Source: Azolla caroliniana (taxonomy: Eukaryota > Plantae > Polypodiophyta). Taken from it: 64,000 nucleotides of DNA. The notes below the pieces were generated by a model, which did not search any database, was not told the DNA's origin, and saw only the letters and a program-made list of their open reading frames with translations. Shown here piece by piece: positions 25,292-64,000 of the stretch (positions within the stretch are counted from its first letter, which is position 1; the number at the start of each line of letters is the position of its first letter). The translations under genes were made by a program, and so were the position numbers. Location: the NCBI GenBank assembly GCA_043228905.1, contig JBHGNT010000006.1:16430001-16494000 (forward strand), in the 5' to 3' direction.

Positions 25292-25353
25292 TGTCACGTT
25301 GTTACGCACGTGCGTGTAGAAAGAGGCGGGGCCACGGGGGCCTTGAACCAAGG

Positions 25354-25387
<34 letters not shown>

Positions 25388-31300: not shown

Positions 31301-31752
31301 CCCGCCTCGACAACCAAAGCGAGTCGTCAAACTCGTACTTCTCGAGGAGCTGCAGCTCGAACTCCTCCCAAATCTGGCATCCGGCCAGCACCTCGAGCAC
31401 CTCCACGTGGATGCTCAGCGTCACCACCCGAGGGAATCCGGACAACCGCCTGTCCACCAGGATATCCCTCATGATCCTTTCGGCCCGGTAAGCCTCCAAA
31501 TAACTTGTGGCGTCTTTCCCTCTGAACTGGCCTATAGTGCCGACGATCGATTAAATCGCTCTGTCGAGAGTACCCGTCCCCTCACGAGCGCTTACCAGCC
31601 GGTCGACGGCTACTGCCATTGCCTCTGGTAGCTCCAATCCCGTCATCTTTCGACTCTTTTGCCACCTTTTCATGTCAGGTTCACCAATGATGTCGCGGTT
31701 TTACGTGCGTGCATGTAGAAAGAGGTGGGGCCACGGGGGCCTTGAACCGAGG

Positions 31753-31811
<59 letters not shown>

Positions 31812-32430
31812 AAGAGAAGAGAGGAGAAGGTTCGCAGATACGCAGAAGGGAGAAGGAAAGAGAAAGAAATTGCACACTTAATTACTGTAACAGTCGATTA
31901 CAATATCCAGATATTGCAAACTGTGACGAATAGAACCGGCAAGGCAGCGATAGACCCGACACGGGGATCCTACTCACGCACACAGACAGAACACACTAGA
32001 CTCAGAGAAACAAAAAGGGGAGAGCCTTTGCTGGAAGCACACGGGCTGTCCACGAAGTAGAGGCAGTGAACTCCCGACACCCACAGAGACCGACGATCGG
32101 AGGAGAAGAGAAAGCTTGGCACTCAGATCTGCAGCAACACTCCATCCTTGCCAACGCACGACACCCTTTCCTCCTTCTCTCCCTCCTTAAATAGTTCGCA
32201 AAAAGGGGGGGGGGGGTCCCCTTTCTCCCTAGTCAAAACCGCTTTATTCCCTGTCCCTTTCAACAGAGATACGCACAAATCCCCTAATGAATGTGTACTA
32301 CCTAGTATTTACATTAGCCGACCTAATTACGAATTATGTACAAAATATCAATTCTCGCGTCCACCCGTGTAAGAGCCGGTTCATGCGCCTTTTTCTCCGA
32401 TTCCGCCCATGGCCGGTTTTCTTCACGACA
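25292..32430 (-). mobile_element. Element C: full-length degenerate tRNA-Trp-primed gypsy
   Basis: LTRs 31691-32430 and 25292-25999; TSD ccgg/ccgg; PBS tggtgaacctgacatgaa 31669-31686; PPT 26000-26016; gag CMWCDAIGHIRKDC, protease LVDHGSEINL, RT PQGGTNS/FLDD, integrase YNPEANG, WFGPY. Confidence 0.96.
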
Positions 32431-39705: not shown

Positions 39706-40713
39706 TTGCTCCTCCCCCTCACCTTCTCCTCCATCCTACCACAGAGCTTCAGCCCACCGCAACCACTGGTCTCCTTCCCACGAACCTCCTCTGACGATGC
39801 CGATCTTCATATCTACTGCCTTACGCCGATGGCTCGTGGAGAAACGCTAGCACCCCCACACCTGAATGCCATGGACATCGCCAGGAAGCTTAACATCGAC
39901 ACGGTCACCAACTCCATCCGGAAGAAGTTGGACCTGTCATCGCTAGGAGAAAGGCATTTCGAAATCCCTCCTGTAGAGGCGTTGCAGCGATATTTCGGAC
40001 CATAGGACCATATTCCTCCTCCGCCAAGGCCTATAGAACGAACTAGATCTCGGATCCCTTCTTCCGTGAAGTTGCCAAGTTCCTACTAGATGTCGACTGC
40101 GTACATGTCAACGCATATGGGATGCCCAAGCCGAAGGCGGGCATCATTATCGATACCTTTGAAGGGTCTGCGGTCGATTGGGGGGTCATCACAGGACCGG
40201 CGTTAAGGGAAGGCATGCATGCGTATCAAGCAGGCAAAAAGCTCAGGCCGATCATACAACAGTACCTTATGGTACTATTCCCACCCCGAGGCCTGGCGGC
40301 ACCGCAGCCCAGCCGACCCACGCCCCTGCCCCGATCCGTGAAGCGCAGGTTAGCGGAGTTAGCGGCCCCAGAGTGGGTAGAGGAACCCCAACTTGCCCAG
40401 CCAGACACGAGGACAACACCTCCTGACCAGTCGGACACACGGACAATGCAGGAGGAACAGCCGGCACGTTCCATGGAAGCAGCCCCAAAGCCAGACACCG
40501 AAACACGAAAGGATAGCCCCAGACCGAAATGACGTAGATTGGACATGAAAGATGGGCAGGGGTTGGTCAAAGACGTCCCCACGACGACAGAGACACGGAC
40601 CGAAGGCGATGGGTCCGCAGCTACGGAACCCAATACCACCTTCGAAATCATCCAGGAGCCACGACTGATCATTACGACCCAGTCCCAATGAGGGAAAGCC
40701 GTATTGATGGCGG
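39706..40713 (+). pseudogene. N-terminal half of a decayed long ORF (continues at 59542); probable retroelement accessory ORF
   Basis: ORFs 39706.. and 40122..; FEGSAVDWGVITGPAL motif; frame joins 59542 across the GCGG TSD. Confidence 0.65.
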
Positions 40714-41830
40714 TGTCGTGAAGATTTTCGGCAATAGTGTGAAAATCCCATAAAACGTACAAAATCGAGTATGAATCATGTAATACAATAATTGTGAAGA
40801 TAAAATTTTTTATATCTAAGTACAAAATGATGGAGGTTTCGAATGCACTTTATTACACGAGAAATGGACAAATAAATGTCAAGATATGAGGGTATAAAGT
40901 TTGTGAAAAGAAAAGAGAAAATTGTGAGATATCCCACATAGGCACGACAAATACGGCTCTCATCATATATAAGGTGGAGCAAAAGATATTATCTTTGTGT
41001 CTATGTGTGGAGCATAGAGAGTTCAAGGTAACTTGAACTTAGAGTGGAGGTGGCTAGCTACTCGAAAAGGGTTTTGGCCAACCAAAACCGGACCGGCGAT
41101 GGAGCCGGTGATCCGACGGCATCTGACGGCAATCCGGCGGCGGCATGTGGCACTGGTATCCGGCGGCGGCATCGGTATCCGGCATCGGCGTCGGCATCCG
41201 GCGGCGGCATCGGTATCCGGCGACGGTATCCGGCGAACCGGCGAACCGGCGACTAGATAAAATAAATATATAAAAATATATACATATTTACATATACAAG
41301 GAGGGCAAGTATGGATTTGAACCTTGCACCTCCAAGTTAGGAGTCAAATGGCTTACCATTAAGCCATAGTATTTAGTTAAAATTATATTTCTATCATTGT
41401 ACTTTTACATGTAAATTCTCATTCATGAGTGCTAAAATGAGTGACATGGTTAGCATGCACCACATGTAATACTTAAGCGCCAAATGGCAAACATGCAATT
41501 TATGCATGTCTTGTACCCTCACATGCATCATATGCATGAGAGCATCTATAAAAGAGGGAAGGGGGAGGAGAAAAACATGGTTTTTTTTTTATGAAAATTA
41601 AGAAGAAGAATTTCGTTATCAAATCAATCGTGTAATCTCATCTTCTCTGTTTTCCTAATCTATCTTAAGTACTTTCTCGCCAAAGCTTGTATCGACTCTA
41701 AATCCTTCTTGTCCAAAACCCCGGCGGTTCCGCCTCACGATCCTTGCGTAGTGACGGATCTTCACGACATAATTAAGTGGTGAACCCGACGTGAAAGAGG
41801 CGGTAGGAAGGATCAAGTCGAGATTAATAC

Positions 41831-44035
41831 TTGGAGATGGCGTCCTCAAGCAACCAAGCGGGAGAGCTCGAAAGGATGATGCTAATCGTCGAGCAAATGA
41901 TGAGATCTCGGGACAACGACGTGAGCGTGGAGAAGGCTGTCGATCGTGTCGTAGAGCTCGAGGGCCAATTCGATGGAAGGAACGTTACGAAGTTCCTTGA
42001 TGCATATAAGAGGGAGATGAATCAAAGGGACGTGTCCGAGGCACGTCAAATCACAAGCTTCAAGAGAGTTGTCGCCAACAACATCCAAAGACGCGTCATC
42101 GAGCTTCAAGAAGGAAAGACAACATGGTCTGAGTTCGAGAAAACGATACTATCGGAGTTCGTGACTGAAGACTCAACAAGGATGACTCGACATGCCTTGA
42201 TGAAGTGGATAGAGAAGAAGAATAAGAAGATGAGCGTCTCGAGGGTGTACGATGAATTCGACCAGATGTTTAGTCGTCTCCCCAATACGGACCAAGTATT
42301 GCTTGAAGAGGACAAGACTTTGTACTTCTTGAAGGCCGTGGACATAAAGGATAGACGGGATTTGGGGACTCTTCTCGAAGTTGATACCCAAGCAAATGGG
42401 CTCGTAGCGGACTGGATCGCGGTGAAGCGGGCATGCAATAGGCTCGACAAGCGTCGCCAATGGGTTGATGACACCGACTTGATGGGACCGACTACCACGG
42501 AGAAAGCAAGACCGTCGAAAGTAGCTGAGCCGCCGAGACAAAGTAACATGGAAGAAAAGAAGATTGATGACGACATCATTGAAGAGCTAGCGAAGAAGTT
42601 CGAGAAGGTCACGCTAGCCAACATGAATTGTCGGGGCCCTAAAGGAAAAGAACCCTTTAGATGCGTGTGGTGCGATAACATGGACCACATGAGAAGGGAT
42701 TGTACGAGCCTTCGAGAGGCGATTCGACAAAATATCGTATACATAGAGGACAACATGATCTGCTCAAGCGAGACTAGAAGACCCCTACGGGTGAATTTCG
42801 GCAGAGGAGGAATGAAGAAATCTATGGAGGATGCCGATGCGACTCATGTGGATGCGATGCACTAAGTTGCGTCGGCCGGAATAAGAGTCGGGAAAGACAA
42901 GACTGAAGCTGCTAGAGCGGGAGCAAAGTTTTGGACTTCCGTTCTCGAATATGAGAAGAAGGGAAAAGTCACATCGAATGAGGTAGAGCTTGCGGACCGA
43001 AGCGTGCAAAACATAACCGGGTGGTCGGATCCGGTGGACGACAACACCATACTCGCGGAGGTGATGTGCGACAACCACGAGGTGTTCGTCGAAGAGAAGA
43101 GAAAGAGAATAGAAGAGCAAGGGCCATCAAAAAGACATGAAACAAGGAACGCGAAAAAGAAGGACGATGTGGAGACGAGTCGACCAATACAAACGGAGGA
43201 ACGAGAATCAAGCCGAAAAGGGGAGCTGAGCATACGAGTTGAAGAAACGGTTCGGCCCGTGAAGGTTGGTGTCGAAGACCCCACTCGGAGGACAAGGACC
43301 ATACCTACCTATAAGCTAAGGTCGGACATAGAGCAGACGACGGACCTAAAGAAGATTCTCGAAGAACGAGTTCTTGATAGCCACGTAACATTGTCCTTGA
43401 GGGAATTGCTTGGCATTACGAAGAAGGAGTTCCATGACACGATCATGGACCTTGTAAAGAGAAAGAGACAACAATCGGATGAGGAAGAAGAGAAGCCGCA
43501 GAAAGCAAAAACGAATGCCATAACGATGGCAAGAGACGAAATCGATGAAGATATGGTGGACAACCACTACACTCGACCTCATTGGGCACGAGCGACAACG
43601 GAGACGCCGGTGAAGATCGGGGAGAAGAAAGAGACTGTCGTAGCCTTGATCGACCACGGCTCGGAGATCAACCTCATGTCAACCGACTTCTACAAAAAGG
43701 GAAGATGGCCAATCAATACAAACCACGGATGGAAGATTCGCGCGGCAACAAAGTCTACGGAGGACTTATACGGAGCTTGTCCCAATGTCAAAGTCACGAT
43801 CGGGGATGTGGAGATGGATCAACACTTCTTCGTACAAGAATCGGCGTCGCATCCTGTCATCCTAGGGCAACCTTATATCACATCATCTCGGATGGAGACC
43901 AAAGTGTTTGATAATGGAGCAGCCTTCGCACGAATAAAGAGTCTTGACAACCAAAGATCGGTCCAATTCCTAACAGTGCGAGCCAATCATGAAAGGAATC
44001 GAGATAGTCTCGGAGGCGAATCCTCGGATTTTTAG
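41831..44035 (+). pseudogene. gag: Element A gag-protease ORF (in-frame stop at 42863-42865)
   Basis: FDGRNVTKFL, CVWCDNMDHMRRDC knuckle, LIDHGSEINLM protease; ORFs 41831 and 43004 share a frame. Confidence 0.92.
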
Positions 44036-44090
44036 AGCGGACTATTGAAGCATGGGGCACAAATAGTCCGAGCAATCACAAGACCCCACA
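44026..44090 (+). promoter_or_regulatory. Predicted -1 ribosomal frameshift signal (GGAUUUU + H-type pseudoknot)
   Basis: ggatttt 44026-32 before the gag TAG; stem cggactatt/aatagtccg; loop tgggg pairs with cccca 44084-88; pol is in the -1 frame; conserved in C. Confidence 0.8.
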
Positions 44091-47000
44091 AGAAAGAAGA
44101 ATGCGTGGATTGCAAGGAGAAGCAACATGTGTCACACCTAGTGGCGCATGTAAACTAGTACTACCCGACAAGAAGCACAAGCGCCGGATACAAGAATTTG
44201 AGAAGATGCTGAAAGAAGAGAACATAATAGAAGAAGGAGAGTTCGTGACTCATATTATGGAAGAAGCCTCATTTAACGACACCATCGACGAAATTGAGGA
44301 CGTCGTGGACTTGAGCTATCTTCACAACCAACGTGTGATTTCGGTTAACTCCGTCAACATGTACGCTATCATCAATGAATACCGTCGTGGCATCTCGATG
44401 AATGAAGCTGACATTAACACGAAATATAAAACAGTGGATAAGAAGATCAAGCCAGTTGCGGTTCCGCTACCGGAAGATAGCTGGCAAAAGATGAAGGAAG
44501 TCGCTAACGATCCAAGCTTAAGAGATCCGAAGAAGATAGGTCATGACTTCACCAAAGAGACGAAGGGGAAGCTATGAGTTGGAAAGGAGGATTTCCTTCT
44601 CCCTGAAGAGGAGCGAATGTTTCGCGATATGCTTGAGAGACATGGGAAGGCTTTCACATTCTTCCCACGAGAAATCGGATGCGCCGACCCAAAGATTATA
44701 GAGCCAATGGTGATCTTCACGGTGCCTCATGTGCCTTGGAACTTGAAACCGATACCGGTTCCGAGAGCACACCTTCCGAAGCTGATCGAGCTCTTAAAGG
44801 AGAAGGTGAGTATGGGAATTCTAGAACCGTCGAATGCTCCTTATTCCAATAGGTGGTTCACGGTGCTGAAGAAGAATGGATCATTGCGATTCATCCAAGA
44901 TCTTCAACCCGTCAACAAGGTGACAATTCGAAATGCCGGAATCGGTCCGAGCGTGGACGAATTTGCCGAAGCATTTGCGGGCCGGTCCATCTACTCCATT
45001 GGCGATCTCTACTCCGGATATGACCAATTCCAATTGGCGATCGACAGTCGGGACATTACAACCATGAGGACTCCGATTGGGCTTGTGCGGATGTGTACCT
45101 TACCCCAAGGCGCAACGAACTCGGTGGCTCATATGGTGAATGCCATGAATAAAGTCTTGAAGGATTGCATTCCGGACATCACGATGCCATTCTTGGATGA
45201 TATTCCGATAAAAGGATGTTCGGATGAGGAGAAAGATGAATTGAAAGATAAGGAAGGTTGTAGAAAGTTCGTTGCGGATCATATGAAAGATTGCGAGAAG
45301 GTGCTTCAAAGGCTCGAAGATGCGAATTTGACATTTTCGGGAGAAAAATCCGCATTCGGGCAACCAGAGATCTTGGTGGTAGGTCACTTGTGTGGAGCAT
45401 ACGGCCGGAAGCCCTCGCCATCCAAAGTGAACGCAATCCAAGACATGAAAGAAGAATGCGAAAACCAAACGGAGGTTCGAAGGTTCCTTGGAGCGTGCGC
45501 GTTTTATCATATATGGATTCCTCACTACGCTCATGTCACCGAACCATTATATGGACTACTAAGGAAAAGAATAAAGTTCGAATGGCGAGACGAGCACACA
45601 GAGGCGATGCGAAGATTAAAGAAACTGCTTCTTGAAGCTCCAGCACTAAGGAAGGCCGACTATGCCAAAGGGAAACCAATTTACGTGACTGTAGATACGA
45701 GCCCAACCGGAATCGGGTGGGTCATCAATCAAGAAGGTGAAGATAATGCGCGATATGCCATCCGGTTCGGAGCAAAGGTTCTCAGCGAACGGCAACAAAG
45801 ATATGCCCAAGTCAAGCGGGAACTTTGGGGTATTGTGTCGGCAGTGAAGATGGACAAAGATTACCTGATCGGGTCAGAAGTGATAATAGAGACAGATTGT
45901 CTCCCAATTCTCGGAATGGTCTCGGGATGTGTGACCCCAGATCTTGCTATGCTAAGGTGGATCGCCTACATCAAGTCTTTAAACCCAGAGATCCGTCACA
46001 TCGCAGGGAAGAAGAACGCCATGGCTGACATGCTGTCAAGGGCAAGATTTTCAAATGGAAGTAACATGGTTTCGGAAGATGAAGATGTCGCCCTCGACTT
46101 CTTCAAGATGGCTCGATTGTCGGCGGAAGACCAGGACACGCAAACCCTCCACGCCTTCAACGAGAACGAGTACGAAGGAGAGGGGTTACTCATCGTTAGA
46201 TTCCTAAGAACATTGACGACCGATGCTTCGTTGACAAAGGAGGAGGCCCTACGAATCCGGAAGAAAGCTTATCGATACTTCTTATAGGGAGGATTCCTTT
46301 GGCGACATCCAAAAAGAAGGATAGGAATACCACGTCGAGTGGTGGTAAAGAAAGAAGAGCAAGAGACGCTGATGACCGAATTCCACGAGAGTGCTTGGGC
46401 AGGTCATAGAGGAACATGGGCGACGTTCGAAAAATTGAAGGAGAAGTACTGGTGGCCAAGCATGTACAAAGATGTACTCCATTTCGTGTCCACATGTGGA
46501 ACTTGCCAAATATATTCAAATATACGTCATCGTGATGAGTTAAAGCCGACATACCCACTCACCATTCACTTCAAATGGATGGTGGATCTGGTCTCGATGC
46601 CAATGGGAGTGGGACAAATGAAGTACTTAGCGCTCGCAAGGGAAGACTTGACAAATCAAGTGGAAGGACGAGCCTTGATAAATAAGACGACTTCAGCCGT
46701 TTGTAAATTTTTACTTGAAGATGTTGTTTGCCGATATGGATGTGTAGGGAAGATAGTGGCCGACCGAGGGGAGTTGGACGCGCACGAAGCGACGGAGCTC
46801 TTCGAAAGACTAGGCGTGAAGCTCTCCCTCACGACTGCCTACAATCCGGAAGCAAATGGGAAGATCGAGCGAGGGCATGGACCTATCGTTAAAGCCATTG
46901 TACGGGCATGCAACGGTCGAGTCGGGAATTGGCCACGACTATTACCCTATGCCTTGTGGGCCGATAGAACGACACATAGCTCGGTGACAGGGTATATGCC

Positions 47001-47520
47001 GACGGAGCTTATGTATGGACAAAAGCCGATTATGCCCATCGAAAGGACGATCGCCTCATGGGTAGCGATACCGTGGGAGAACGAGATGAGCCGTGAAGAG
47101 TTATTAGCGGCGCGGATAAGGCAACTTGAAAGAAGACCTGAAGATTTAGAAAAAGCGCGAAAGATGATGAAGGCAGCCCGAGTAAAGAACAAAGTTCGGT
47201 TCGACAACACGCATCGACTTCGTCCCAAGAAGATTGAAGAAGGGGATTGGGTTTTGGTTTACGACAGCACCCTTGACAATCAACATAGTACGACAAGGAA
47301 GTTCGCAAGAAGATGGTTCGGGCCGTATGTGGTGACAAGTGCCAACGATAATGCCACATACCACCTTGTGGAACTAGACGGATCAAGGATGGCCGTACCC
47401 ATTGGGGGAAAAAGAGTAAAGCTTTTCAAGAAAAGACAAGACAAGGATCCTGACCTCGATTACCTCGACGATGGACATAATAGGCCGGATGAAAATGAAG
47501 ACATGGAGGAATCTAATTGA
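44032..47520 (+). pseudogene. pol: Element A pol: RT-RNase H-integrase (stops at ~44575 and ~46285)
   Basis: LRFIQDLQPVN, DLYSGYDQF, PQGATNS, FLDD, VDTSPTGIG, HES..AGHRG..C..C, VADRG, YNPEANGKIERGH, WFGPY; no chromodomain. Confidence 0.94.
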
Positions 47521-49335
47521 TCATCGTAGCCGAAATCTCACTTCTTCTCTTCTTGGCACGTACCGGAGGACGTGCGGTTTGGTGGGAGTGGATGTCGTGA
47601 AGATTTTCGGCAATAGTGTGAAAATCCCATAAAACGTACAAAATCGAGTATGAATCATGTAATACAATAATTGTGAAGATAACATTTTTTATATCTAAGT
47701 ACAAAATGATGGAGGTTTCGAATGCACTTTATTACACGAGAAATGGACAAATAAATGTCAAGATATGAGGGTATAAAGTTTGTGAAAAGAAAAGAGAAAA
47801 TTGTGAGATATCCCACATAGGCACGACAAATACGGCTCTCATCATATATAAGGTGGAGCAAAAGATATTATCTTTGTGTCTATGTGTGGAGCATAGAGAG
47901 TTCAAGGTAACTTGAACTTAGAGTGGAGGTGGCTAGCTACTCGAAAAGGGTTTTGGCCAACCAAAACCGAACCGGCGATGGATCCGGTGATCCGACGGCA
48001 TCCGACGGCAATCCGGCGGCGGCATGCGGCACCGGTATCCGGCGTCGGTATCCGGTGGCGGTATCCGGCAGCGGTGGCGGTACCGGTATCCGGCGTCGGC
48101 GACGGTATCCGGCGAACCGGCGACTAGATAAAATAAATATATAAAAATATATACATATACAAGGAGGGCAAGTATGGATTTGAACCTTGCACCTCCAAGT
48201 TAGGAGTCAAATGGCTTACCATTAAGCCATAGTATTTAATTGAAATTATATTTCTATCATTGTACTTTTACATGTAAATTCTCATTCATGAGTGCTAAAA
48301 TGAGTGACATGGTTAGCATGCACCATATGTAATACTTAAGCGCCAAATGGCAAACATGCAATTTATGCATGTCTTGTACCCTCACATGCATCATATGCAT
48401 GAGAGCATCTATAAAAGAGGGAAGGGGGAGGAGAAAAACATGGTTTTTTTTTTATGAAAATTAAGAAGAAGAATTTCATTATCAAATCAATCGTGTAATC
48501 TCATCTTCTCTCTTTTCCCAATCTATCTTAAGTACTTTCTCGCCAAAGCTTGTATCGACTCTAAATCCTTCTTGTCCAGAACCCCGGCGGTTCCGCCTCA
48601 CGATCCGTGCGTAGTGATGGATCTTCACGACATAATTAAGTCGATGTCGTGACGATTTTCGGCTACGGTGTGAAACCGAGTGAGACGAATAAACCAATGA
48701 TGTGCAACATTGCACATACACTTAGCAAATAAGCCTCCTAAGGCCTAGTGGCACTTGAGTTCATACAGAGGGGTGCAATCAAGGTTTGAACCTTGCACCT
48801 CTAAGATACAAGATAATTGCCTTACCACTAGGACAACTATCATATAATGTAGATTTTATGTATTTCCTTTTCATATACAAATTATAGACGAAACAACCAT
48901 AGAAAACCATGTGCACAAAACCATGGTTTTAAACCCATGGTTTGTGCATGACATAAGCAAAACCGTGTGCACAAAACCATGGTTTTAGCCCATGGTTTTG
49001 TGCATGTCACAAGCATGGAAAGACCTATAAAAGCCTCTAGTTGGGCTTGTGTAAGGGGGGCTCAATATGTGATATCACCAACACCACTATCATCAATATA
49101 ATTATATTTGTCTTTATCTTCTTCATATTTTTCTACTTCTCAAGTGTACAATTTTTCTTCTTCTCAAGTAAACCAATTTCATCTAATCTTACATTGATCG
49201 TCATCTCTTCGATAATTCCGCGAACATCCTCCCCAGTCCAAGACCCCGGTGGTCGCTCGAGTAGCACACGCACGCGCGAATCTTCGCGACATCATTTGGT
49301 GAACCCGACGTGAAGAGCAGCAGGGGAGGACGAAG

Positions 49336-52300
49336 ATGGATGGCGAATATCTCATGGAGGCAATGTCAAGAAGGATGATGGAGTTTCTGAGAGAAGGGAA
49401 AAGAAGAAATGAAGCCCAACAAGCCGTCGACAGGGTAGTCGAGCGAGTGAGCTATTTCAACGGCGCCGAAGTCCAAAGTTTCCTAAAAGTCTACAATGCG
49501 GAGATGGATTCAAGAGGTGTGGACAAAGCTATGAGGCTAGAGTACTTTTGTCGGGTGGTGTCTCAACCGATCTTCAAAGATGTAAAAGAGCTTCTAGAAG
49601 CTCATGATTCGTGGGCGACTTTCGAGAAGGCTCTATTGGAGGAATATGGCTATGAGAGACTGAAGGGACGAGATCGACGCAACTTCGACCAATGGGTGAC
49701 ATCAGCGAAGACCCACGAAGGTGCGACACAAGCATTCGTAGACTTCGAGCATCATTTTTCTCAATTGTCGGAGCGGGAACAAAGATTGGTGGGGGTCGAT
49801 AAGATCCTTATGTTCGTGAAGTCAATCGATCGAATGGAAAGGATGGCGATCGGCCTCAAACTCGAAGAAGATGATGGTGCAAATGGCCTCATCGAGGATT
49901 GGAGCAAAGTGGAAAGTGTATGCCGACTACACGATAAGGGGCAAGCGAGAATATCGGCAACAGCAAGACGGCCTATGAGGGACGATCGAAGAGGGACGAG
50001 ATGCAACAACGCGCCACCAACAAAAGAAATGAAGCTTAAAAGGGAGACAAAACCGAGGCGAATGGTGATCGAGGAAGAAGAGACCTCCCAACAAATGCGG
50101 GTTAATGAAGTGGCCGATACAAAGGCTCTGGTTCGGTATGACGGTACCGAGAGAGAATGTGTGAAACAAGTCACCTTCTTGTCTTACAAAGAAACGACGG
50201 CGAAGGAGGAGGCCGATGACTCGAGGACGGCGAACGCCACTTCGAGGGAGGATAAATGTTTCGGAACACGCATTGTTTACGAAACATCGGGTGATGAAGG
50301 CGCAAGCATTAGAAAATCTTGCATGATCGAGGGAGATAAAGTGTTTGAGTTCGACGTGATTGAGGAGGTAGCCATGACAAACGACATCGAGCCGCAGGTG
50401 GCTATGGATGAGTCGACGACGGATAGCCATGTCGACACTTTCTTCACGCTTGTTCCAGAGACTTCGGCGGTTGCACCCATGTGCCAACGTGAGACCGGAG
50501 AGACGGAAGGTGGTGACGGGAAGACAAAGGCCCAACACAAGGAGGAAGAAGATCGAGGAAGAAAGGATATCCCCACACCTAATCTAGAGACTTCGGCGGT
50601 TGTGCACGTGCGCCAACGTGAGACCGGAGAGACGGAATGTGTGGACAAAAAAGGGGACGACCGGAAGGGCGATGAAGAAGACAAGGTAAATGTGCATGAG
50701 CGAAGGGATTCCTTCACACCGGTTTCGGAGACTTCGGCAGTCGAGACTGTTGTCTGTCTGGCTGGACTAGCCTCAACACAGGTGTCTACCCGACACTTCT
50801 CCAAAGGGGTGGTAAGGATTGGATGCTAGGTTACACGCATAAGATGATTACGATTAAGCACGGACGACAAACAATACAAGATACAGATAAATACACAATA
50901 ATTACTATTGTATTACTTCCGTCAAAAAAACTTTACAAATCATCGGATCCTTTTATAGGCATCCGGCAAGGTTACAATCGGTGCGCTTAGGCAACCGACA
51001 TCCGAATCGGTTCGGATCCGGATCGGTAAAACTGTACCGAATCCGTCCCTCCGAATAATAATTCTACTATTACTTCCTATTATCCGATCCGATTCCGCCT
51101 TCCCACTTGTCCTTGCTCTTCTGACCGGCCAACACATGGCACGCCCGTGGGAAAGTGCCTTGCACTTCGAATCCACTCCCGGCCTCAGTCTTCCTCCAAA
51201 ATATCGAGCACACTTTGCTCGATAGTGTCAAGTGGTGCTTCTTCCTCCTGTTCCTGTTCCTTGCCTGCCTGGTCTCCGACCTCCTGTTGGGTAGGCTGTT
51301 CCGTAAAAATTTTCTGCTCCGGCTCTGCTTGATTCCGTGGTGCCGGTGCTTCCTCATCGCTTCGTCCGGGTTCTTCCTGTTCTCCCTCCGTTTCTGGCTC
51401 TGTTCTGTTACCGGTGTCGCTTTCTCCGGTCTCGACTGGTCGACTTGATATGCCTCCTTCCTCTGCTCTGGTGTCTTCCGGTCTCAGCTCTTCTTCTTCT
51501 CCGGCATCGGTCCGCTCCTGCTCTTCTTCAAGTTCGTCTTCAGGTATTCCTCGTCAGGGTTGTTCGGTGTCGGTTGGTTCATCTTCCGTCGGTCGCGTTC
51601 CCTCACCAATAGTGGTTGGCGTCGTTCTTCCCTTAGCTTCCTGTCGTAACCGGTCCTGCTCGTATCTCTTCAACTCCAACTGAGTTGCGAGCTGCCCGTC
51701 ATCCAACCTCTCTACCAACCCTCGGATTTCTTTGAGGTGTTCTTCTGCTAAAGTGTAGAAATCCTCTGACAATTCCTCCGCTTTGTTCGGGTCGGTTCGT
51801 GTGGATACCGGATCCTTCTGTCGGTTTTCCGGGATGGTCCTCGTTAGTATTGGTGTCGGTTCTTCCTCGGTCTGAATGTCTTCAGCAGCGTCTGTCGGTG
51901 TCGGTTCCTCATCTTGCCGGATTTCCGGGTTTCGCTTGAACGGGTTGGCTGGCATATTTCCTTTATACGGCTTTAGCCGAAATCCATTTGCCCACTTGCC
52001 GATGACATCTCCAGACAATGTGCCGAGCTGATACGGCCCATTATACTCCTTGGTGATCCAGAACGGTCCGGTCCATCCAAACCGCAACTTTCCCGGCATG
52101 TTCCCCATCCTTGTCTGGAATAGTAGCACCGGTTTCCCGACTTCGAACTCCTTTTCATTGCCACGCCGGTGTCGGTCCACGAAGGCTTTTCTCCTCCTTT
52201 GCTCCAGTTCGAGTTGTAGTAAGCTGGCTATTTGGTTTTCCTCTAATTCCAACAGCGTTGCCAGTCGGATTCGTTCGGACTCGTTCTCACTTAAGCGCTC

Positions 52301-55300
52301 CTTTACCTGAATCCGTAAGCTGGGGATCTGGAACTCTACCGGCATGACCGCTTCTAATCCAAATGCTAGTCGGAACGGGGTTGTCCGGATGCTGGTTTTG
52401 TACGTTGTTCGGTACGCCCATAGCGCGCTTTGCAATTTCGTATCCCAGTCGGTCCGGTTCTCGTTGACGATTTTTGGTAGGATGTTCTGCAGAGTTTTGT
52501 TCGTTGATTCCGCTAGTCCATTGGCTTGAGGGTAGTACGGTGTACTCTTTTTATGTACCACCGCGTACAATGACGTCAGGCTTTCTACTACCTGCCCGAG
52601 AAAATGTCCTCCTTGGTCACTTATAAGCTCGAGCGGACATCCGTACCGGCACCATATGCATTCGTACAGAAACTTTGCCGTGGAAGCGGCCGTGTTGTCC
52701 CGTAAGGCCTTTGCTTCTACCCATTTGGTGCAATAGTCGGTCGCCACTATGACATACCGATTTCCGGTTCGCATTGCCGGTGGTTTGAAGGGACCGACAA
52801 AGTCCAACCCCCACTTTTGAAACGGTTCTAAGCGCAAGACCGGGTGGTGTGGCATCCAGGCCTGCTCTGTGGGTTGGCCCAGTCGTTGACACAAATCGCA
52901 TTCTCTGCTATACTTCACCGCATCTTTTAGGGTGGTCGGCCACCACAGTCCGCTCTGCCATATTTTCCAAGCGGTTGCGTCGCCGGCAATTCCACAATGG
53001 GCTTCCCTGAGGATTAGATCCTTCTCATTGCTCCGCACTGCTCGTCTCCAGATGCCATCTGCCCCCTTGTGATAGAGGGTGTCTCCAACCAAGCAGAAAT
53101 GTCTACTTCTTACTGCTACCCTTTTCCTTTCATCGCGGTCCATGTTGTCCGGGGGAACTCCGGTGCTCAGGAACTGGTGCATCTCAGTTAGCCATGTGTC
53201 TTCGTCGGCTACCGTTGTATCCGTTGCCAGTTTCGTCGTGATCCGGAACAATTCGGCGTCGGGAAACTCATCCTGGACGTCGTCCCCTGCTTCTCCGGAT
53301 TCAAGTCTGCTTAGATAGTCCGCAACCGCATGCTGCGCCCCGGGTCGGTGGAAAATGTCGAATTCAAATTCCTGTAGTAGCAGTGTCCACCGTGCAATTT
53401 TTCCCGTCAGGGATGCCTTCGAGACTAGGTAGAGTAGTGCCGAATGGTCGACATGGAAGGAAAACTTCCTTCCGAGCAGATAGTGCCTGTACTTTGTGAC
53501 ACTATACACCATTCCTAATGCGTCGCGTTCCGTCGTAGAGTAGTTCCGTTCGGCTTTTGAGAGTTTCCGGCTTGCGTAGTACACCGGTCGGTACCATTTC
53601 GGCTCTGTGAGTTGCATCAGAACGCTGCCGATTGCTACGTCCGACGCGTCGACGAAGACGTGAAAGCTTTTACTCCAATCCGGCGGTTGCACCACCGGAG
53701 CTTGCGACAACATGACCTTCAACGCTTTGTAGGCTTCCTCCTCCGTCTCTGCCCATAGGAAGGGTACCCTATGTACGGCGGTATGTAACGGTGTAGCGAA
53801 GTCCGCGAGGTGCCGTATCATCCGGCTATGCCACCTTATTTGGCCCAGGAACCGGCTTAAAGCCTTTGCGTTACTTGGTGCTGGTGCATCGAGAATCGCC
53901 TTGACTTTATCCGGATCTACCGCGATTCCTTCCTTACTCACCACGTGCCCTAGCAAGTTGCCGCTTGCCACTCCAAAGACGCACTTGGCCGGATTCAGGC
54001 TCAATCGGTACTCGCGGCACTTCTCCAAGCACAGTCGGAGGTGATCGAGATGCTCTCCGTGCCGGCTGTAGACCGCGAAATCGTCAAGGAAGACCTGCAT
54101 AAAACCGGGGATATATTCCCCGAAAATTTCCATTATTATCCTTTGAAAGGTCGCTGGAGCCGTCTTTAGTCCGAACATCATCACGACCGCGACGAACACT
54201 CCCCATTCCGTCACGAACGCTGTCTTCTCTTGGTCGGCCGGGTTCATTCGTATTTGGTTGTAGCCGCTAAATCCATCCAGGAAGCTGTAAACTTCGTGCC
54301 CGGCTACCGCATCTAACACCCCGTCCGTAAATGGTAGTGGAAACGCATCGGTCACTGTTGCGGCATTTAGTTTTCGGTAGTCCACGCATACCCGGATTTT
54401 TCCGTTCTTTTTCGGGACCACCACTATCGGACTCAGCCAGGTTGCCTGCTTGACTGGTTGGATAAATCCGACCCGGAGGAGCTTATCAATTTCCTCCTTC
54501 ACCTTTGCCGCATAATTCGGATTCATCCGGTATCTGCGTTGAGCAATCGGTTTCGCGTCCGTACTTAGGTGAATTTGGTGCTGATAGAGCTGGGGGTCCA
54601 GTCCTCGCATGTCTTCGTACGACCACGCGAACACATCCTTGAAGTCTGTTAACAATGCTACCATTGCCTTCGTTTCTTCCTTCGGCAATTCCTTTGCAAC
54701 ATTTACCGGTCGGGGCTTGTCTGCTGTGCCGAGGTCCACCTCCTCGAGTTGGGATGCTTTTACCCTCTGGGATATCGTCATTTCCCTCTCTAGGGATTCC
54801 TGCGCTTGTCGTAGTTCCCGGATCGCCGCTTGGTCCGGTTCTTCCGGCGTCGTAATGTACGGTTCTACTGCCGCCGTGATATCCACCTCAAATAGTGGGA
54901 CGATTCGTGGGTGTTCCTCGAGGTACCGCTCGACTTCCTCGTCCGGTAAACCCTCCAACATGTTAATGCTTTCCGCATACAATGGAGTTGCTTCCTTACT
55001 GGTGATCACCCGTGGTTGCGTCGTTACTCGTACCTTTGTTTTCCCTCGCCGGAATGTGATCATGTTCTTTTGCCACTTCTGCTTGATATGCGCCGTTCGC
55101 AGCCATGGTCGTCCTAGCAGTAGGGGGTACGCGCCTTGTACATTCAGCTGCAGCACCACGGCCGATATCCGGAATATGTGGCCTCCGATCGTGATTTCCA
55201 AATCCCGGATAAGCCCGGTCGGTCGGACTGAGCTAGTATCGGCCATGCGTAACCAGAAGGGGCATGGTTCCCATTCCCGGATGCCCAGGTCGTTGCATGT

Positions 55301-58300
55301 CTGTTGGCTGATGACATTTACCCCGGAGCCTCCGTCAATAATCGTTCCAGCAATTTCCTTTCCTTTCACGATTGTCGTGATCGCCGGGCTACTTGTATCG
55401 ACCACCGCTAGTCCTTCCTCCGGGTTGGAGAAGAATGCTGGTGCTGGCGTCGGCTTCGGTTTGCTGACGGATGCCTGTAGGTCTGCCGTAAATCGTGGCA
55501 CTAACTGTAGTAGTCGTGCTAACCGCAGCACGATTTGACAGTCCTGTAGCGCTTGCCACGTCGGGTTTTCTCCTGGCTGTATGATTTCTTCGTCTTTTGG
55601 CATATTTTGGTCTCTTACTTCTGCCGCATTCTGTTCATTGGCCTCCTTGATCCATTGTGTCGCTTGTTTTCTGATTGCCTCCTGGGCTTCCCACTCGGCG
55701 GTCTTTCCCTTTGACCGGGTTGTGACCTGCTGTACTTCTGTTATTTCGGCTGTAACCATGTTGACTTCCGGCTGCTTGTCATAGCTTTTGCTTGGGCATT
55801 GGTTACTATAGTGGCCTTCCTTGCGGCAGTAATAACAGTACACCTTGTGACTGTTGCTCGTTTCTCCTTTGTCCTCGGTTTGGAGGGTGGGTATGCTCCG
55901 GCGGTCGTCTTCGGTTTTTCGGTTATCCAGTACGGATACCGGGTTGTCATTCCTTGCTGCCTCCCGACGTTCCTCTCTTCGGAAAAATCCACGCTTCTGA
56001 TTCCGTCGGAAATTTCGGTTCCCTTGTTGCCTCTCTTCTCTGTGTCGGTCGTATTCCGGGGCTCCGTCTCGGTCGTACCGGTCCCGAGGGTAGCTATCTT
56101 TGCGTCTCTCCTCTCGGTCATAGTTGTCGCGTCTTCTATCAGCGTATCCTTGTCGCCTCTCTTCTCCGCGTCTGTCGTCTTCCGGGGATTCGTCTCTGTC
56201 GTACCGGTCCCGGGGGTAGCTATCTCTGCGTCTCTCCTCTCGGTCATAGTTGTCGCGTCTTCTATCAGCGTATCTGTTACCGCGTTCGCGTTGGTTGCGG
56301 TTGTCTCTCCGGAATCGATCCTCGTCCGGGTTCTGATTGCGCGGTTCTATGTGTCGAACCGGTGCTGCCTGCCGATTTAACAGGTTGTATTCGCATCGGT
56401 CCGTTGTATGGGCTCGAGAGTTGCAGATCACACATTGTGTCCGTAGGGTGCAGTCTATTGTTGAGTGCCCCGAATTTAGGCATGTTGTACATTGTAAGGC
56501 CTGTCAGAACCTCAGGTCTTCCTCTTTTGGGAGTGCCCGGTGTAACATCCCCATCGACAAGAAGGGGCTAGTCTTGTCCATTTCTAAAACCCGATCAATA
56601 ACTTGGTCCATTGTGCTGGTTTGGAAATCAAGGACTCCGCACATTGTTCGAAGTGGCTCTTTCAGTGCGGCCAGAAAGACTGCTTTGGCTTCGTCTTCGG
56701 GTGGTGCTCTTGTCAGTTGGCTGTGCAGGGTCTGGAACCGAATGATGAATTGTGGCATAGTCTCGTTCTCTTCCTGTCGGGTGGTGTAGAACTGCCCGAC
56801 CAATTCCCTTTGCTCAAATTGTCTGTGAAAAAACCTGAGGAATCTGGCCTTCAAGGCATCGAATGTGGCAAACGTGCCTGGTAAGTGCTTTGCGTGCCAT
56901 TGGGCCGCCGGTCCTTTTAAGGTTATGCCAAATTCGGCGATTTTGGATCGTTCGGCTTCGGGCTCCGTCAGTCTTTGGGAGATATAGTTGGCTTCCCATG
57001 TTTGGAGGAATGCGTACACGTGTGCCTCCGCGTCGGCCTCATCCCGGTACTTTGGGTATGGGTACGGCATCGTGTCGTCCAACTGACTCTCCTGTTCCCT
57101 CCGTTCTCTGTCCGCTGTTGGCGTTGGTGTGAGAACCTTTGGTTCCTCCGTGGGTGTTGCCGGTGTCCGGTCCGTTGGCGTTGGTGTGAGAACCTTTGGT
57201 TCCTCCGCGGGTGTTGTAGGTATCCGCTCCTTCGGTTCCCTCGCGGTTGTTGTTGGTATCCGGTCAGCCTTCCTCGGCGGTTGCCGGTCACCGAATTCCA
57301 GGGTTATTTCTTCCTCTGGCGCCGGTGTTACTGAGTCTTCCGACCCCTCGTCCTCCCGGTCATTTGGTGTGTCGTGGCTGCTTTTATACCGGGATGCAAC
57401 GCTTCCGTCGCTTTCCGACTCCGCCTCAAGTGTTGCGAATGCTTCCGAGTCCCCGTCGCCCGCGGCGAGCGTCTGCAGTATCGTTTCCGCCTCTTGCATG
57501 CTTGTTATGCTACTGCCTTCGTCGGGGATTTGCAGAACCCGGAACTGCAGTGCTTCTTCTGCGACTCTCCGAAGAGTTTTGGAGAATGACCGATCCCGCC
57601 GGATCTCGTCGACGGCTTGCTGCAGGGCTTCCCGTCGTTGCTCGCGTTCGGTGTATCGTCTCCCTCGTTCGGTGATGTGGTCGTCGTTTGGTTTAGACAT
57701 CCATCCCCCGGTTGTCCTCTGCACTTTGCAGGAATCGTGGTCGCCAAAATAGTGTTGTCTGTCTGGTTGGACTAGCCTCAACACAGGTGTCTACCCGACA
57801 CTTCTCCAAAGGGGTGGTAAGGATTGGATGCTAGGTTACACGCATAAGCACGGACGGCAAACAATACAAGATACAGATAAATACACAATAATTACTATTG
57901 TATTACTTCCGTCAAAAAAACTTTACAAATCATCGGATCCTTTTATAGGCATCCGGCAAGGTTACAATCGGTGCGCTTAGGCAACCGACATCCGAATCGG
58001 TTCGGATCCGGATCGGTACAACTGTACCGAATCCGTCCCTCTGAATAATAATTCTACTATTACTTCCTATTATCCGATCCGATTCCGCCTTCCCACTTGT
58101 CCTTGCTCTTCTGACCGGCCAACAGAGACCGTGTGTCGGCATAAGACCGAAGACAAAGGAGGTGGCGAAGAGGAGACAATATGGCTCGAGGCGAGCATAC
58201 ACGGAGGGAAGGATATGGCCGACGAGCAGGCCAAGGATGAAGCCGCGGTTGAGTTCGATGGAGAGGTTACATGCGGGAAGGAAGGAAGAGTCGAGAACCG

Positions 58301-58814
58301 GTCGAACCGGAAGACGATCCGGCCGAGATTCCGGCTCGAACGAAGGAAGATCCACATGGGAGCCGATCGACCGCGGCTGACCTGGCTGAAACCTGATTCG
58401 GCGAAAATCGATCGAACGATTCCAATCCAAAAGGGGGTCGACCCAGCCAGAATCAATCGGTCGAGCCCGACTCGGGGAAATGCGAATGTAGACGAAGGCC
58501 AACCCAGCCAAGAAGCGATCAGCGGAGACCGATCCGGAGAAGGGCAAACCTGGCAAAATCGAAGATGGACACGAACGATCCACAATACCCGGTTGAAGAA
58601 ACCCAATCGAAGGACAAGCGCGGTGGACGAAGGAAGAGCGGTCGTATCGACGACATCGTTCGGTAGATCTACTACAACCGATTGGGGAAGAAGGTGTGAG
58701 CGCCGGATATGGTGGATCGGGTGGCTACGGTGGTTCGGTTGGAAAGATTGCGCATACTCGAAGTGGAAGACGAAGTCAGACGAGGTTGACGAGCATGCAG
58801 AGGAACTCGGTTGA
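49336..58814 (+). CDS. Element B ORF split by D (49336-50747 + 58130-58814, ~698 aa): capsid-like N-terminus plus uncharacterised tail
   Basis: YFNGAEVQSFLKVYNAEM..LEEDDGANGLIEDW aligns with A/C gag; removing D and one GAGAC gives the open reading ..SAVETVCRHK.. Confidence 0.8.
50748..58124 (-). mobile_element. Element D: young full-length non-chromovirus gypsy (Athila/Tat-like RT)
   Basis: LTRs 57753-58124 and 50748-51134, near-identical apart from a 15-bp indel and a few substitutions; 5-bp TSD gagac; PBS tggcgaccac ~57737-57746. Confidence 0.97.
51554..57700 (-). pseudogene. gag-pol: Element D single-frame gag-pol polyprotein with one TGA at 56504-56506
   Basis: ORFs 56504..57784 and 51554..56431 share a frame; E has Arg at the stop position; IIDGGSG, CVDYRKLN, FLDGFSGYNQI, FLDD, VDASD, WGLDFVGP, YYPQANG, WTGPF. 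Confidence 0.94.
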
Positions 58815-59541
58815 TCACCGTTGCCAAAGATCTCACCTCTTCACCTTTCTCAGCACATACCGGAGGATGTGCGGGTTTGGTGGGGGTGGATGTCGTGACG
58901 ATTTTCGGCTACGGTGTGAAACCGAGTGAGACGAATAAACCAATGATGTGCAACATTGCACATACACTTAGCAAATAAGCCTCCTAAGGCCTAGTGGCAC
59001 TTGAGTCCATACAGAGGGGTGCAAGCAAGGTTTGAACCTTGCACCTCTAAGATACAAGATAATTGCCTTACCACTAGGACAACTATCATATAGTGTAGAT
59101 TTTATGTATTTCCTTTTCATATACAAATTATAGACGAAACAACCATAGAAAACCATGTGCACAAAACCATGGTTTTAAACCCATGGTTTGTGCATGACAT
59201 AAGCAAAACCGTGTGCACAAAACCATGGTTTTAGCCCATGGTTTTGTGCATGTCACAAGCATGGAAAGACCTATAAAAGCCTCTAGTTGGGCTTGTGTAA
59301 GGGGGGCTCAATATGTGATATCACCAACACCACTATCATCAATATAATTATATTTTTCTTTATCTTCTTCATATTTTTCTACTTCTCAAGTGTACAATTT
59401 TTCTTCTTCTCAAGTAAACCAATTTCATCTAATCTTACATTGATCGTCATCTCTTCGATAATTCCGCGAACATCCTCCCCAGTCCAAGACCCCGGTGGTC
59501 GCTCGAGTAGCACACGCACGCGCGAATCTTCGCGACAGCGG

Positions 59542-61142
59542 AAAGCGAGGTTTTGGCATATTCGGATATCTCGGATACGGCCCATGAGTTCAACGCCCTT
59601 TTACAGTTCGGAACTTCTTTTGAGCTCATGGAATTCCTGGCAACACAACAGGTAAAAGCCTCCCAACGAATGGCCGAGGAGCACGCGGAGCGCCAGATGA
59701 TCGAGTGCGCCCTAACACAAACGACAGAGAGCGACGATGAGGACCGGTTAGCCAAGGTCGGCAGACAGAGGAACACCGGGGTACGCCGAGTGGGGATGGA
59801 GATACCCCCATTAAACACGGCCCTAGTCGAAGTCCATAGAGAACTGGCAAAGGTCAGCATGGGCGCCAAGGAGATGACCATTAAAAATAAGAATGTCTGG
59901 AAGAAGGTGAAACTGACCCACGCCGAACTGCAAAAAGCCAACGGACGCATCGCGGAGTTGGAAGCTAACGCGAATATCGCGCAATACGCAACTCCACCAC
60001 CAAACCACGCCATCGACGCTTTAAAGGAAGAAATTGAGGCTCAGACCGGCATCACCTGAAAAGCGAAAAGGGCCGTGCAACTAGCGGAATCAGAAATTGA
60101 CCCCCTTCGAGCTGAAGTACGCCAATCCTCAGACAGAGAAAAGGAGATACGGGCTAACGGCCTGAAGGCAGTAAAAAACCTTGAAGAGAAACTCGCTACG
60201 GAGGTAGCTAAGCACATCCGGACAAAAGACAAAAATGCCCAATTACGGGAGGACGCAAAGAAATCGGAGGTGGCAATCGCGGGATTCCGGGCCTTATTAG
60301 AGAAAAAGAAGGTATGGTTCGACGAGCAGCTGGTGGTCGAACAAGAAAGAAGGCATCAGCTCGAAATCTGCGTAAAGAATGAAATGGGGAAATTAGAAGA
60401 ACAACATGCAAAGGAATCCCAGCTATGGGCGGGCCTGAAGGCCACGCACGAAGAAGCAGCGGCGGTTAAACAACAAGAAATTGCAAACCTCCAGAAGTCG
60501 ATGGAGAACGCACGCAACCGTTGCCAGGCCATCACAGATAACGTGCGTATCCTTCTCCAAACAAATCGGGAGAGGTTCATAGCGCAATTGAAAACGACGC
60601 TGGACAAAGGATGGATAGCGTGGACAACCCAAGCAGCGGAATTGCACGCGTATCGTGCGGACTGGGAGAACCAGTGAAAAGACGGCCGAGGTTTCTATAA
60701 ACTAAATGAGCAGAGCATTGCGGCCATACGAGAGGACCTAGTGCAAGACTATCGTGCGCTAGCGGACCAACACTCCGAAGAACTCGCACAGCTCTTAGAT
60801 GATTTTGGTGAAAGCCAGGAGGAGCTATTTCACCAGATCACACAAGCCGGCAACACGCGAACAAATGAGGAATCCAATGCGACGCCAATTTCGGGCATGG
60901 GGGAAGAAGAGGAACCTCAGGCCAGATCACCAGAAATTACAACGACGGGGAACAATGCGGACCGACGAGCAGAGTCCCCCATAGTACCCATGCTATCATC
61001 GGACCACATGGAGAACGGTGGGGGCCAGGCGGAATCGCAGCCCCACTCCCCGGAACATACAAAGACGGTCGACACCACGACGGAAGTAACGATTGAGACA
61101 GAGCCGCGGCCAACTGCAAGCACGACGATGGCGGAGGGGTAG
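59542..61142 (+). pseudogene. C-terminal half of the decayed long ORF: coiled-coil region and acidic tail
   Basis: ORFs 59553, 60075 and 60741 all lie in one frame separated by stops; E/K/Q/A/L-rich helical sequence. Confidence 0.7.
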
Positions 61143-63279: not shown

Positions 63280-64000
63280 TGTCGTGAAGATCCGTCACTA
63301 CGCGCAGATCGTGAGGCGGAACCGCCGGGGTTCTGGACCGAAAGGACTCGAAGTTGGCACAAGCTTTAGCGGGAAAGGAATTAAGATAGATTGAAAGAGA
63401 GACATTGAGATAAGATAGAACGCTTGATTTTAGATTGAGAGAGAGATTAAGAACTCTTGACTTTAGATTTCAAGAACAAGGTATATCATCCAAAGGATAA
63501 CGAATTTTCTTCTTAATATTAATTTTGATTTAAAGTACAAAGCTTTTTTTTATCAAAAAATCCCCCCTCTTTTTACATTCTAATTTTTTATTATTTTCTT
63601 TTTTACCCTTCAATTTTACATTCCTTTCCTACCATCTGTCTCTTGGCTCCCACGTTGGTTCTCAACGCAACTGCCCAAGTCTCTAGATGGAGTGTCCTAC
63701 ATGGGTAACACCATCGTCCATCTCTTGGGTCTCACGTTGCCACATCGGCTTGAACTGCCCAAGTCTCTGGAACATGTGTGCTCCTCACATAGACACTCCT
63801 TCTACATTCTAATTTTTTACCTTTCAATTTTACATTCGTTTCCTACCATCATTCTCTTGGGTCCCACATTGGTTCTCAACGCAACTGCCCAAGTCTCTAG
63901 ATGGAGTGTGTCATTGGTTTGCTAAATCAACATACAATCTTCTTGTATCATGGGTTCGAATCCCATTTCCTACATGGGTATCACCACCGTCCATCTCTTG
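63280..64000 (-). mobile_element. LTR of an element-A relative, running off the window
   Basis: 63280-63400 is the reverse complement of the A LTR 3' end (ccccggcggttccgcctcacgatc...cttcacgaca); internal aactgcccaagtctct repeats; flank acgg. Confidence 0.82.

Follow-up and report, generated by a model that had tools for sequence, protein, structure and literature searches.

How can two complete long terminal repeat (LTR) retrotransposons with dissimilar LTRs come to lie end to end within a single target site? The question is raised by a 64-kb stretch of the 523-Mb genome of Azolla caroliniana, referred to here as the window (contig JBHGNT010000006.1, positions 16,430,001-16,494,000, or C6:16430001-16494000; other loci are named in the same form), in which an element of a pol-bearing family (A) is followed by an element without pol (B). 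A reading of the window made from its letters alone (the sequence-only reading) had proposed that cDNAs of both elements were co-integrated through their outer ends. The evidence presented here makes it very probable that this happened as one event. Integrase would have taken a single end from each of the two cDNAs, and the inner ends, left unprocessed, would have been end-joined either ahead of integration or following it.

Neither element has a target-site duplication (TSD) of its own, and the pair is flanked by GCGG on both sides. This bare match is weak evidence because the family prefers NCGN targets, so that outer 4-mers match by chance at about 0.15 per locus, not 1/256. The host sequence, a decayed high-copy repeat and not a gene, provides paralogues of the site: among 697 candidates, 40 were scored and 20 fetched including the window copy, and in 17 of the 19 fetched paralogues the flanks are adjacent with a 4-base overlap, which is the empty site with a single 4-mer. 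The A+B pair therefore occupies one target site, as the sequence-only reading had held when it suggested a search for an empty paralogue. One of the remaining two paralogues carries another family member at the identical site. The same reading had claimed that excising both elements restores a host frame; the flanks do read through (GKAVLMA / AESEVLAYSD), into a repeat that has a stop 7 codons before the site and whose open reading frame (ORF) pieces gave no Pfam match above cut-off. The repeat, at window positions 39900-40713 and 59538-61142, includes a long coiled-coil-like ORF, and at C16:17347470 an independent solo LTR of another family member occupies the same site of a paralogous copy (left GCAG, right GCGG).

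Self-comparison of the window confirmed the coordinates of the flanking GCGG copies, of the elements and of the junction given by the sequence-only reading. The features are as follows (the primer-binding site is abbreviated PBS, the polypurine tract PPT and reverse transcriptase RT).

40710..40713, plus strand: left TSD (4 bp), GCGG, a single 4-mer in 17/19 host paralogues.
40714..41769, plus strand: A 5' LTR, 1056 bp, with a GC-rich repeat at about 41082-41257 (self-comparison).
41770..41795, plus strand: A LTR-to-PBS spacer TAATTAAG (41770-77), then the PBS, starting TGGTGAACCC.
41828..47520, plus strand: A gag, DUF4100/protease, RT, RNase H and integrase, the ORF split by in-frame stops.
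47593..48632, plus strand: A 3' LTR, 1040 bp, with the PPT directly before it (self-comparison).
48633..48644, plus strand: junction, 12 bp, consisting of TAATTAAG, T (first PBS base), a filler C and GA (end of the B PPT).
48645..49291, plus strand: B 5' LTR, 647 bp, followed by the spacer TCATT and a PBS identical to that of A.
49303..50747, plus strand: B gag-like ORF, interrupted by element C, with 36% identity to A Gag over 175 aa.
50748..58124, minus strand: element C, a nested later insertion of an unrelated gypsy element, with LTRs of 387/371 bp and the 5-bp TSD GAGAC.
58130..58890, plus strand: remaining B internal region and PPT, without an RT match.
58891..59537, plus strand: B 3' LTR, 647 bp, with 4 differences from the B 5' LTR.
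59538..59541, plus strand: right TSD, GCGG.

The junction reads TAATTAAGTCGA and lacks GCGG, containing at best an altered 3-base TSD remnant. In A, the 5' LTR is followed by TAATTAAG and TGGTGAACCC, and in B the 3' LTR directly follows ...GGGGGTGGA, the PPT ending in GGA. The earlier parse of the junction thus holds for the A spacer, the first PBS base and the GA of the B PPT; the C of 'CGA' is accounted for by neither cDNA end. Such a spacer after an A 3' LTR is exceptional, because ordinary A and B copies have 4-bp TSDs (6/6 with both ends found, in 16 stretches examined) and A tails normally end at CA and pass into host NCGN. The latter applies to nearly all of 100 tails listed among 716 raw matches to an A tail plus non-T pattern, double counts included, and excludes the possibility, raised beforehand, that all A 3' LTRs simply end in TAATTAAGT.

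Both elements are complete, each with the order LTR-internal-LTR (A, 40714-48632; B, 48645-59537, including the 7.4 kb of nested element C), and their LTRs are similar at the termini only. The pol order of A by Pfam is protease, RT, RNase H and integrase (PR-RT-RH-INT), with no chromodomain match at E<=0.01 in its five ORF pieces, which at 41828-47520 fill nearly the whole internal part (41770-47592). Because these frames now carry in-frame stops, 'autonomous', the word used for A in the sequence-only reading, applies to its family. 'Pol-less' suits B itself: its internal region gave no RT match, and protease and integrase only as scraps at E>0.1, the only pol within its span belonging to minus-strand element C, which that reading had missed. 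Excluding C, the B internal region measures 2217 bp, and 2231 bp in three intact copies with LTR pairs 0-2 differences apart; with intact LTRs, PBS and PPT, no pol, and repeated young copies, B is an element of the non-autonomous type. A and B have the same PBS, which we take to match tRNA-Trp, and PPT regions that are 84% identical over 111 nt. That B was mobilised by enzymes of family A would fit this pattern and is supported indirectly by the shared PBS, the likeness of the PPT regions and three A+B dimers; this very A copy may have supplied them.

NCGN preference is evident in 68 of 81 distinct LTR-head flanks of the family. The same preference is described for Phygy, a non-chromovirus Ty3/gypsy lineage (Neumann et al. 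2019, PMC6317226), which A also resembles in being a short element filled by its polyprotein and having no chromodomain match, whereas pol-less partners and dimers do not form part of the Phygy description in the portion of that paper at hand. Placed by domain order, NCGN target and compact polyprotein, the elements look Phygy-like; named RT relatives are unannotated proteins of Riccia and Adiantum. Family members have also inserted into ACGT within the PPT region or PBS of their relatives (C3:19795526, C11:4059987 and C4:17798443), as follows from the NCGN preference.

Junctions of this kind recur across the genome. A genome-wide LTR-end-to-LTR-end pattern matched 46 loci and a control pattern 0, and 791 matches were obtained with an LTR-spacer-PBS pattern. 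For 15 of the 46 loci the assessment used the matched string alone; the rest were fetched at 10-kb range. Two classes emerged, one in which a 4-base TSD is kept between stacked insertions and another in which the spacer consists of cDNA end extensions. The stacked class comprises 10/46 loci with a 4-nt NCGN-like spacer, and in 5 of 11 stacked-type loci fetched the same 4-mer lies at the partner's far end (once with a mismatch); at C16:0.80 Mb, for example, the order is ACGT-X-ACGT-Y-ACGT, with the TSD intact between the elements. The cDNA-extension class comprises 18 loci including the window locus (several patterns combined), mostly tail-to-tail. Outer ends were placed in eight, and the outer 4-mers, which the sequence-only reading had suggested checking, are identical in seven (window locus, GCGG; C3:16.77 Mb, GCGT; C18:9.71 Mb, ACGT; C14:14.28 Mb, CCGG; C18:15.11 Mb, CCGT; C17:15.34 Mb, ACGG; C3:11.03 Mb, GCGC) and differ by one base in the eighth (C21:12.13 Mb, ACGA/ACGG). 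Empty-site paralogues were found for further dimers at C14:14.28 Mb (12), C18:15.11 Mb (3) and C17:15.34 Mb, where the empty site is the host element's other LTR, 100% identical. A tail-to-tail pair of one full A and one full B is found at C18:9.71 Mb, and its junction repeats the spacer variant of that same A copy, TAATAAAG. The empty site, the copy-specific spacers at other junctions and the recurrence of the class all support co-integration.

Fifteen distinct loci have the A spacer followed by T and a non-G base: five are mutated PBSs, one is a PBS deletion, seven join another LTR end, one joins a PPT and one other sequence, such that 8/9 untrimmed A tails join another element and not the host. 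In a strand-symmetric search the orientations were six tail-tail, two head-tail and one head-head (p 0.01 against one quarter; small numbers, post hoc). Most A ends retain one PBS base and most B ends three or four, the total length not being consistent, and the assembly contains one junction twice (C8 and C700). Pairings are many-to-many: A with B (3 loci), A with a related family of pol-less size, and B with another autonomous family. Candidates dropped as non-dimers on inspection were C12:8.62 Mb (a PBS chimera), C14:14.76 Mb (nested in a PBS), C17:15.46, C2:18.03, C7:7.14, C13:4.77, C19:10.65, C20:6.02, C11:18.49 and C13:13.93 Mb. We caution against taking the absence of A-A dimers as proof of a preference for heterodimers, because two A elements joined tail to tail would make a palindrome of 1 kb that could be lost or misassembled.

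Related structures accompany these junctions. Four loci whose partners differ have the identical join TGGT-A-A, which suggests that the end has a fixed structure of four tRNA-derived bases plus an added A. At C3:11.024-11.032 Mb and C1:17276397 an untrimmed tail is joined straight to the partner's PPT and the partner's 3' LTR is absent. At C17:9761561 (where the outer 4-mers match, ACGG) and C20:1069972 the tail carries the spacer and TGGT, after which the final 110-150 bp of the LTR are repeated before host sequence begins; this may be what is left of a dimer, or else a strong-stop piece that was captured. C14:7840268 is a three-LTR, two-family complex: within GCGT/GCGT lie a full A, spacer and TGG, followed by a pol-less-type element's 3' part and 3' LTR.

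A clearer link between helper and dependant comes from two other loci. At C17:15.34 Mb (C17:15335127-15347285) a pol-less and an autonomous element form a very young tail-to-tail dimer within one LTR of a C-family element, and each has its native 3' LTR but its partner's LTR at the 5' end, the crosswise LTR pairs showing 1/733 and 0/671 differences. What is native is given by siblings, namely a 98% pol-less internal sibling with the type-2 LTR and a 99% autonomous sibling with the type 1 LTR at both ends; since the spacers travel with the LTRs, the swap broke within the identical PBS. A second swap occurs at C3:11.03 Mb between a B-type element and another autonomous family (0/622 differences), the autonomous partner's 3' LTR missing exactly at the PPT. 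We infer from the standard scheme that such a reciprocal swap is the expected trace of co-packaging, two templates within one particle having exchanged plus-strand strong-stop DNA. An inversion between the two PBSs at a later time would also produce the layout at C17:15.34 Mb, but fails to give the clean LTR loss at C3:11.03 Mb. Second strand transfer is described in the available portion of PMC6894440, not as an inter-molecule event, and neither that portion nor the one of PMC5371799 describes second-strand transfer from one molecule to another or the retention of tRNA bases. Evidence for the helper link is better at these two loci than at the window locus, and the link is many-to-many, not one helper per dependant.

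It is known that RNase H leaves tRNA bases, that RT adds untemplated bases and that two-donor concerted integration occurs in vitro. At the window locus, helper and pol-less RNAs were probably co-packaged, both cDNAs coming from one particle. Integrase would have joined the left end of A and the right end of B to the two sides of GCGG, while the right end of A and the left end of B, never trimmed, would have been end-joined with one filler base, likely by host end-joining; 2-LTR junctions arise by non-homologous end joining (NHEJ; PMC3148978, PMC9324142, as far as the accessible parts of both go). It is possible that the junction instead arose from the microhomology GTGG with a G-to-C change. 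As to order, we lean slightly towards an integrase complex forming first on ends of two different cDNAs, with the leftover ends repaired in the chromosome, because some single elements have a normal end on one side and, on the other, an untrimmed tail joined to host, because tails dominate the inner joints and because long overhangs hinder HIV-1 integrase, which, according to the part of PMC2615046 consulted, processes ends poorly when CA lies >2 nt from the end. Right (U5) ends with 4-9 extra bases may likewise be poor integrase substrates, and poor U5 processing would explain the tail-to-tail excess. Ligation of the cDNAs before integration has a little less than an even chance.

Several observations weigh against a single event or its co-packaging interpretation. 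The window locus has native LTRs on A and B and hence no co-packaging trace; outer ends could not be placed in 10/18 junction loci; an untrimmed tail is attached to host DNA in single elements at C22:9.91 Mb (without a TSD) and C15:12.08 Mb (TSD kept); the same host site was hit independently, by the family member in one paralogue; and the 'CGA' of the junction is one change from the 'CGG' of the TSD. No junction-bridging contig was found among the matches listed in 7/21 runs, which consist of short-read contigs and may be from other individuals; loose contig ends in those runs matched the PBS after 48641, the PPT before 48643 and varied host sequence after 48632. Over its full length the A LTR pair (27/1037 differences) also diverges more than the B pair (4/647; p 0.002), the pair of nested element C differing at 4/371. 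We rejected raw LTR divergence as an age test, however, because 17/27 of the A differences fall within the GC-rich repeat, which also varies more than any other part in most of the other A copies. Outside it the difference is 10/862 against 4/647 (Fisher p 0.42), and the clearly different LTR ages that the sequence-only reading had named as contrary evidence were not found. Part of the A LTR difference may date from birth, because 5 of the 15 scored A sites show polymorphisms that other copies share (overlapping loci possibly counted twice). Mildly contrary is that, with the repeat set aside, A exceeds B at this locus and likewise at C18:9.71 Mb (10/879 against 3/647, p 0.26).

The untrimmed host-joined tails, the reuse of the site and the similarity of CGA to CGG allow a two-step origin at a hot site, with B inserting first (GCGG-B-GCGG) and A later at B's left TSD, A's right end remaining untrimmed, one TSD base being lost and CGG later becoming CGA. 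Stacking at one TSD is real, as the NCGN-like spacer loci and C16:0.80 Mb attest, the solo A LTR at C15:12.08 Mb keeps 7 spacer bases as well as its TSD and, together with the single element at C22:9.91 Mb, keeps this main alternative for the window locus alive, and C21:12.13 Mb shows just such a G-to-A change. We nevertheless consider it unlikely, as it needs three uncommon events together, and stacked pairs keep an intact TSD between their elements, nearly all untrimmed A tails join another element, GA equals B's PPT end exactly, the LTR pair of A is no younger than that of B, and tail-to-tail loci with both inner ends untrimmed and no TSD remnant would be left unexplained. Rearrangement after insertion, by which the central A LTR was once the 5' LTR of a further A copy and B was moved next to it by deletion or recombination, draws on the facts that spacer and T follow any A 5' LTR and that deletions across the PBS, as well as PBS chimeras, are present (C4:9.87 Mb, C12:8.62 Mb and C14:7.84 Mb); it is very improbable, because it would not leave the host flanks adjoining, with an overlap of 4 bases, precisely at the LTR termini (a criterion given in the part of PMC1950507 seen) and because A and B are complete, each with its own LTR pair. 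An assembly artefact joining two repeats would account for the missing bridging contig but is hardly credible, given that the junction lacks an overlap that could drive a misjoin, that the outer host sequence is continuous, and that the junction class occurs on many chromosomes with different partners, once assembled twice. Integration of a 2-LTR circle is ruled out, the junction joining two families and neither element being permuted.

A single integration of two cDNAs has partial parallels in known systems, each seen here in only part of the cited text. Complex three-LTR insertions, ascribed to template switching (Sabot and Schulman 2007, PMC1950507), likewise have two internal regions within one TSD and are read as single integrations from co-packaged RNAs, but have a shared middle LTR and near-identical outer LTRs and involve one family, whereas the window dimer has four LTRs, two dissimilar families and an untrimmed joint, its class being often inverted. 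Tandem LTR retrotransposon arrays (Morales-Diaz et al. 2025, PMC11899658) are also multi-element under one TSD and gypsy-biased, but are single-family, share their internal LTRs and have no LTR-LTR junction. Double insertions (McGurk and Barbash 2018, PMC5932611, which ascribes some LTR-LTR junctions to a process different from unequal exchange) place two complete elements end to end, inverted ones included, yet keep the target site in the junction, which in the window dimer is replaced by cDNA end extensions; both classes are present in the A. caroliniana genome. In 2-LTR circles LTR ends are joined by NHEJ with small indels (PMC3148978, PMC9324142), but these are intramolecular, head to tail and extrachromosomal, whereas the A-B dimers are intermolecular, inter-family, chromosomal and mostly tail to tail. 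No description of a four-LTR heterodimer with untrimmed inner ends was found in the literature searched, in which older yeast and retrovirus work is thinly covered. The dimer is known chemistry in an arrangement for which we found no description, and it is real and recurrent.

Other features of the window include a short internal stretch common to the otherwise unlike A and B LTRs (41300-41370 and 48785-48845), which resembles a reversed tRNA or a piece of a short interspersed nuclear element; an older minus-strand A relative at 25353-32430 with LTR divergence of ~7% and an altered left end; and a reversed piece of an A LTR tail at 63280-63402. Before its 3' LTR, element C lacks a purine tract; 2 bases from that LTR, at 51135-51152, is a tRNA-like 3' end in sense orientation, with CCA as its last bases.

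Partnerships between autonomous and non-autonomous LTR elements are called poorly understood in the part seen of a 2026 preprint (10.64898/2026.03.01.708851), and which autonomous family moves a non-autonomous element is usually guessed from sequence likeness. The partners can be read directly from heterodimers within one TSD, most of all where the 5' LTRs are reciprocally swapped, and a simple LTR-end pattern suffices to find such dimers in any good assembly; C17:15.34 Mb is the best locus for follow-up. Their junctions preserve true cDNA ends, consisting of the spacer, 1-4 PBS bases and often one extra base, and show that the ends used in integration can belong to two molecules in a plant germ line. 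Dimers are also a route to new LTR-internal combinations between families. For the lineage as a whole, the balance tips modestly towards a reading in which helper and pol-less RNAs would be routinely co-packaged, plus-strand strong-stop DNA would be swapped via the identical PBS, and integrase would pair the ends of two cDNAs of one particle, so that the genome would hold a many-to-many map of which autonomous family mobilised which dependant, along with in vivo fossils of two-donor integration.

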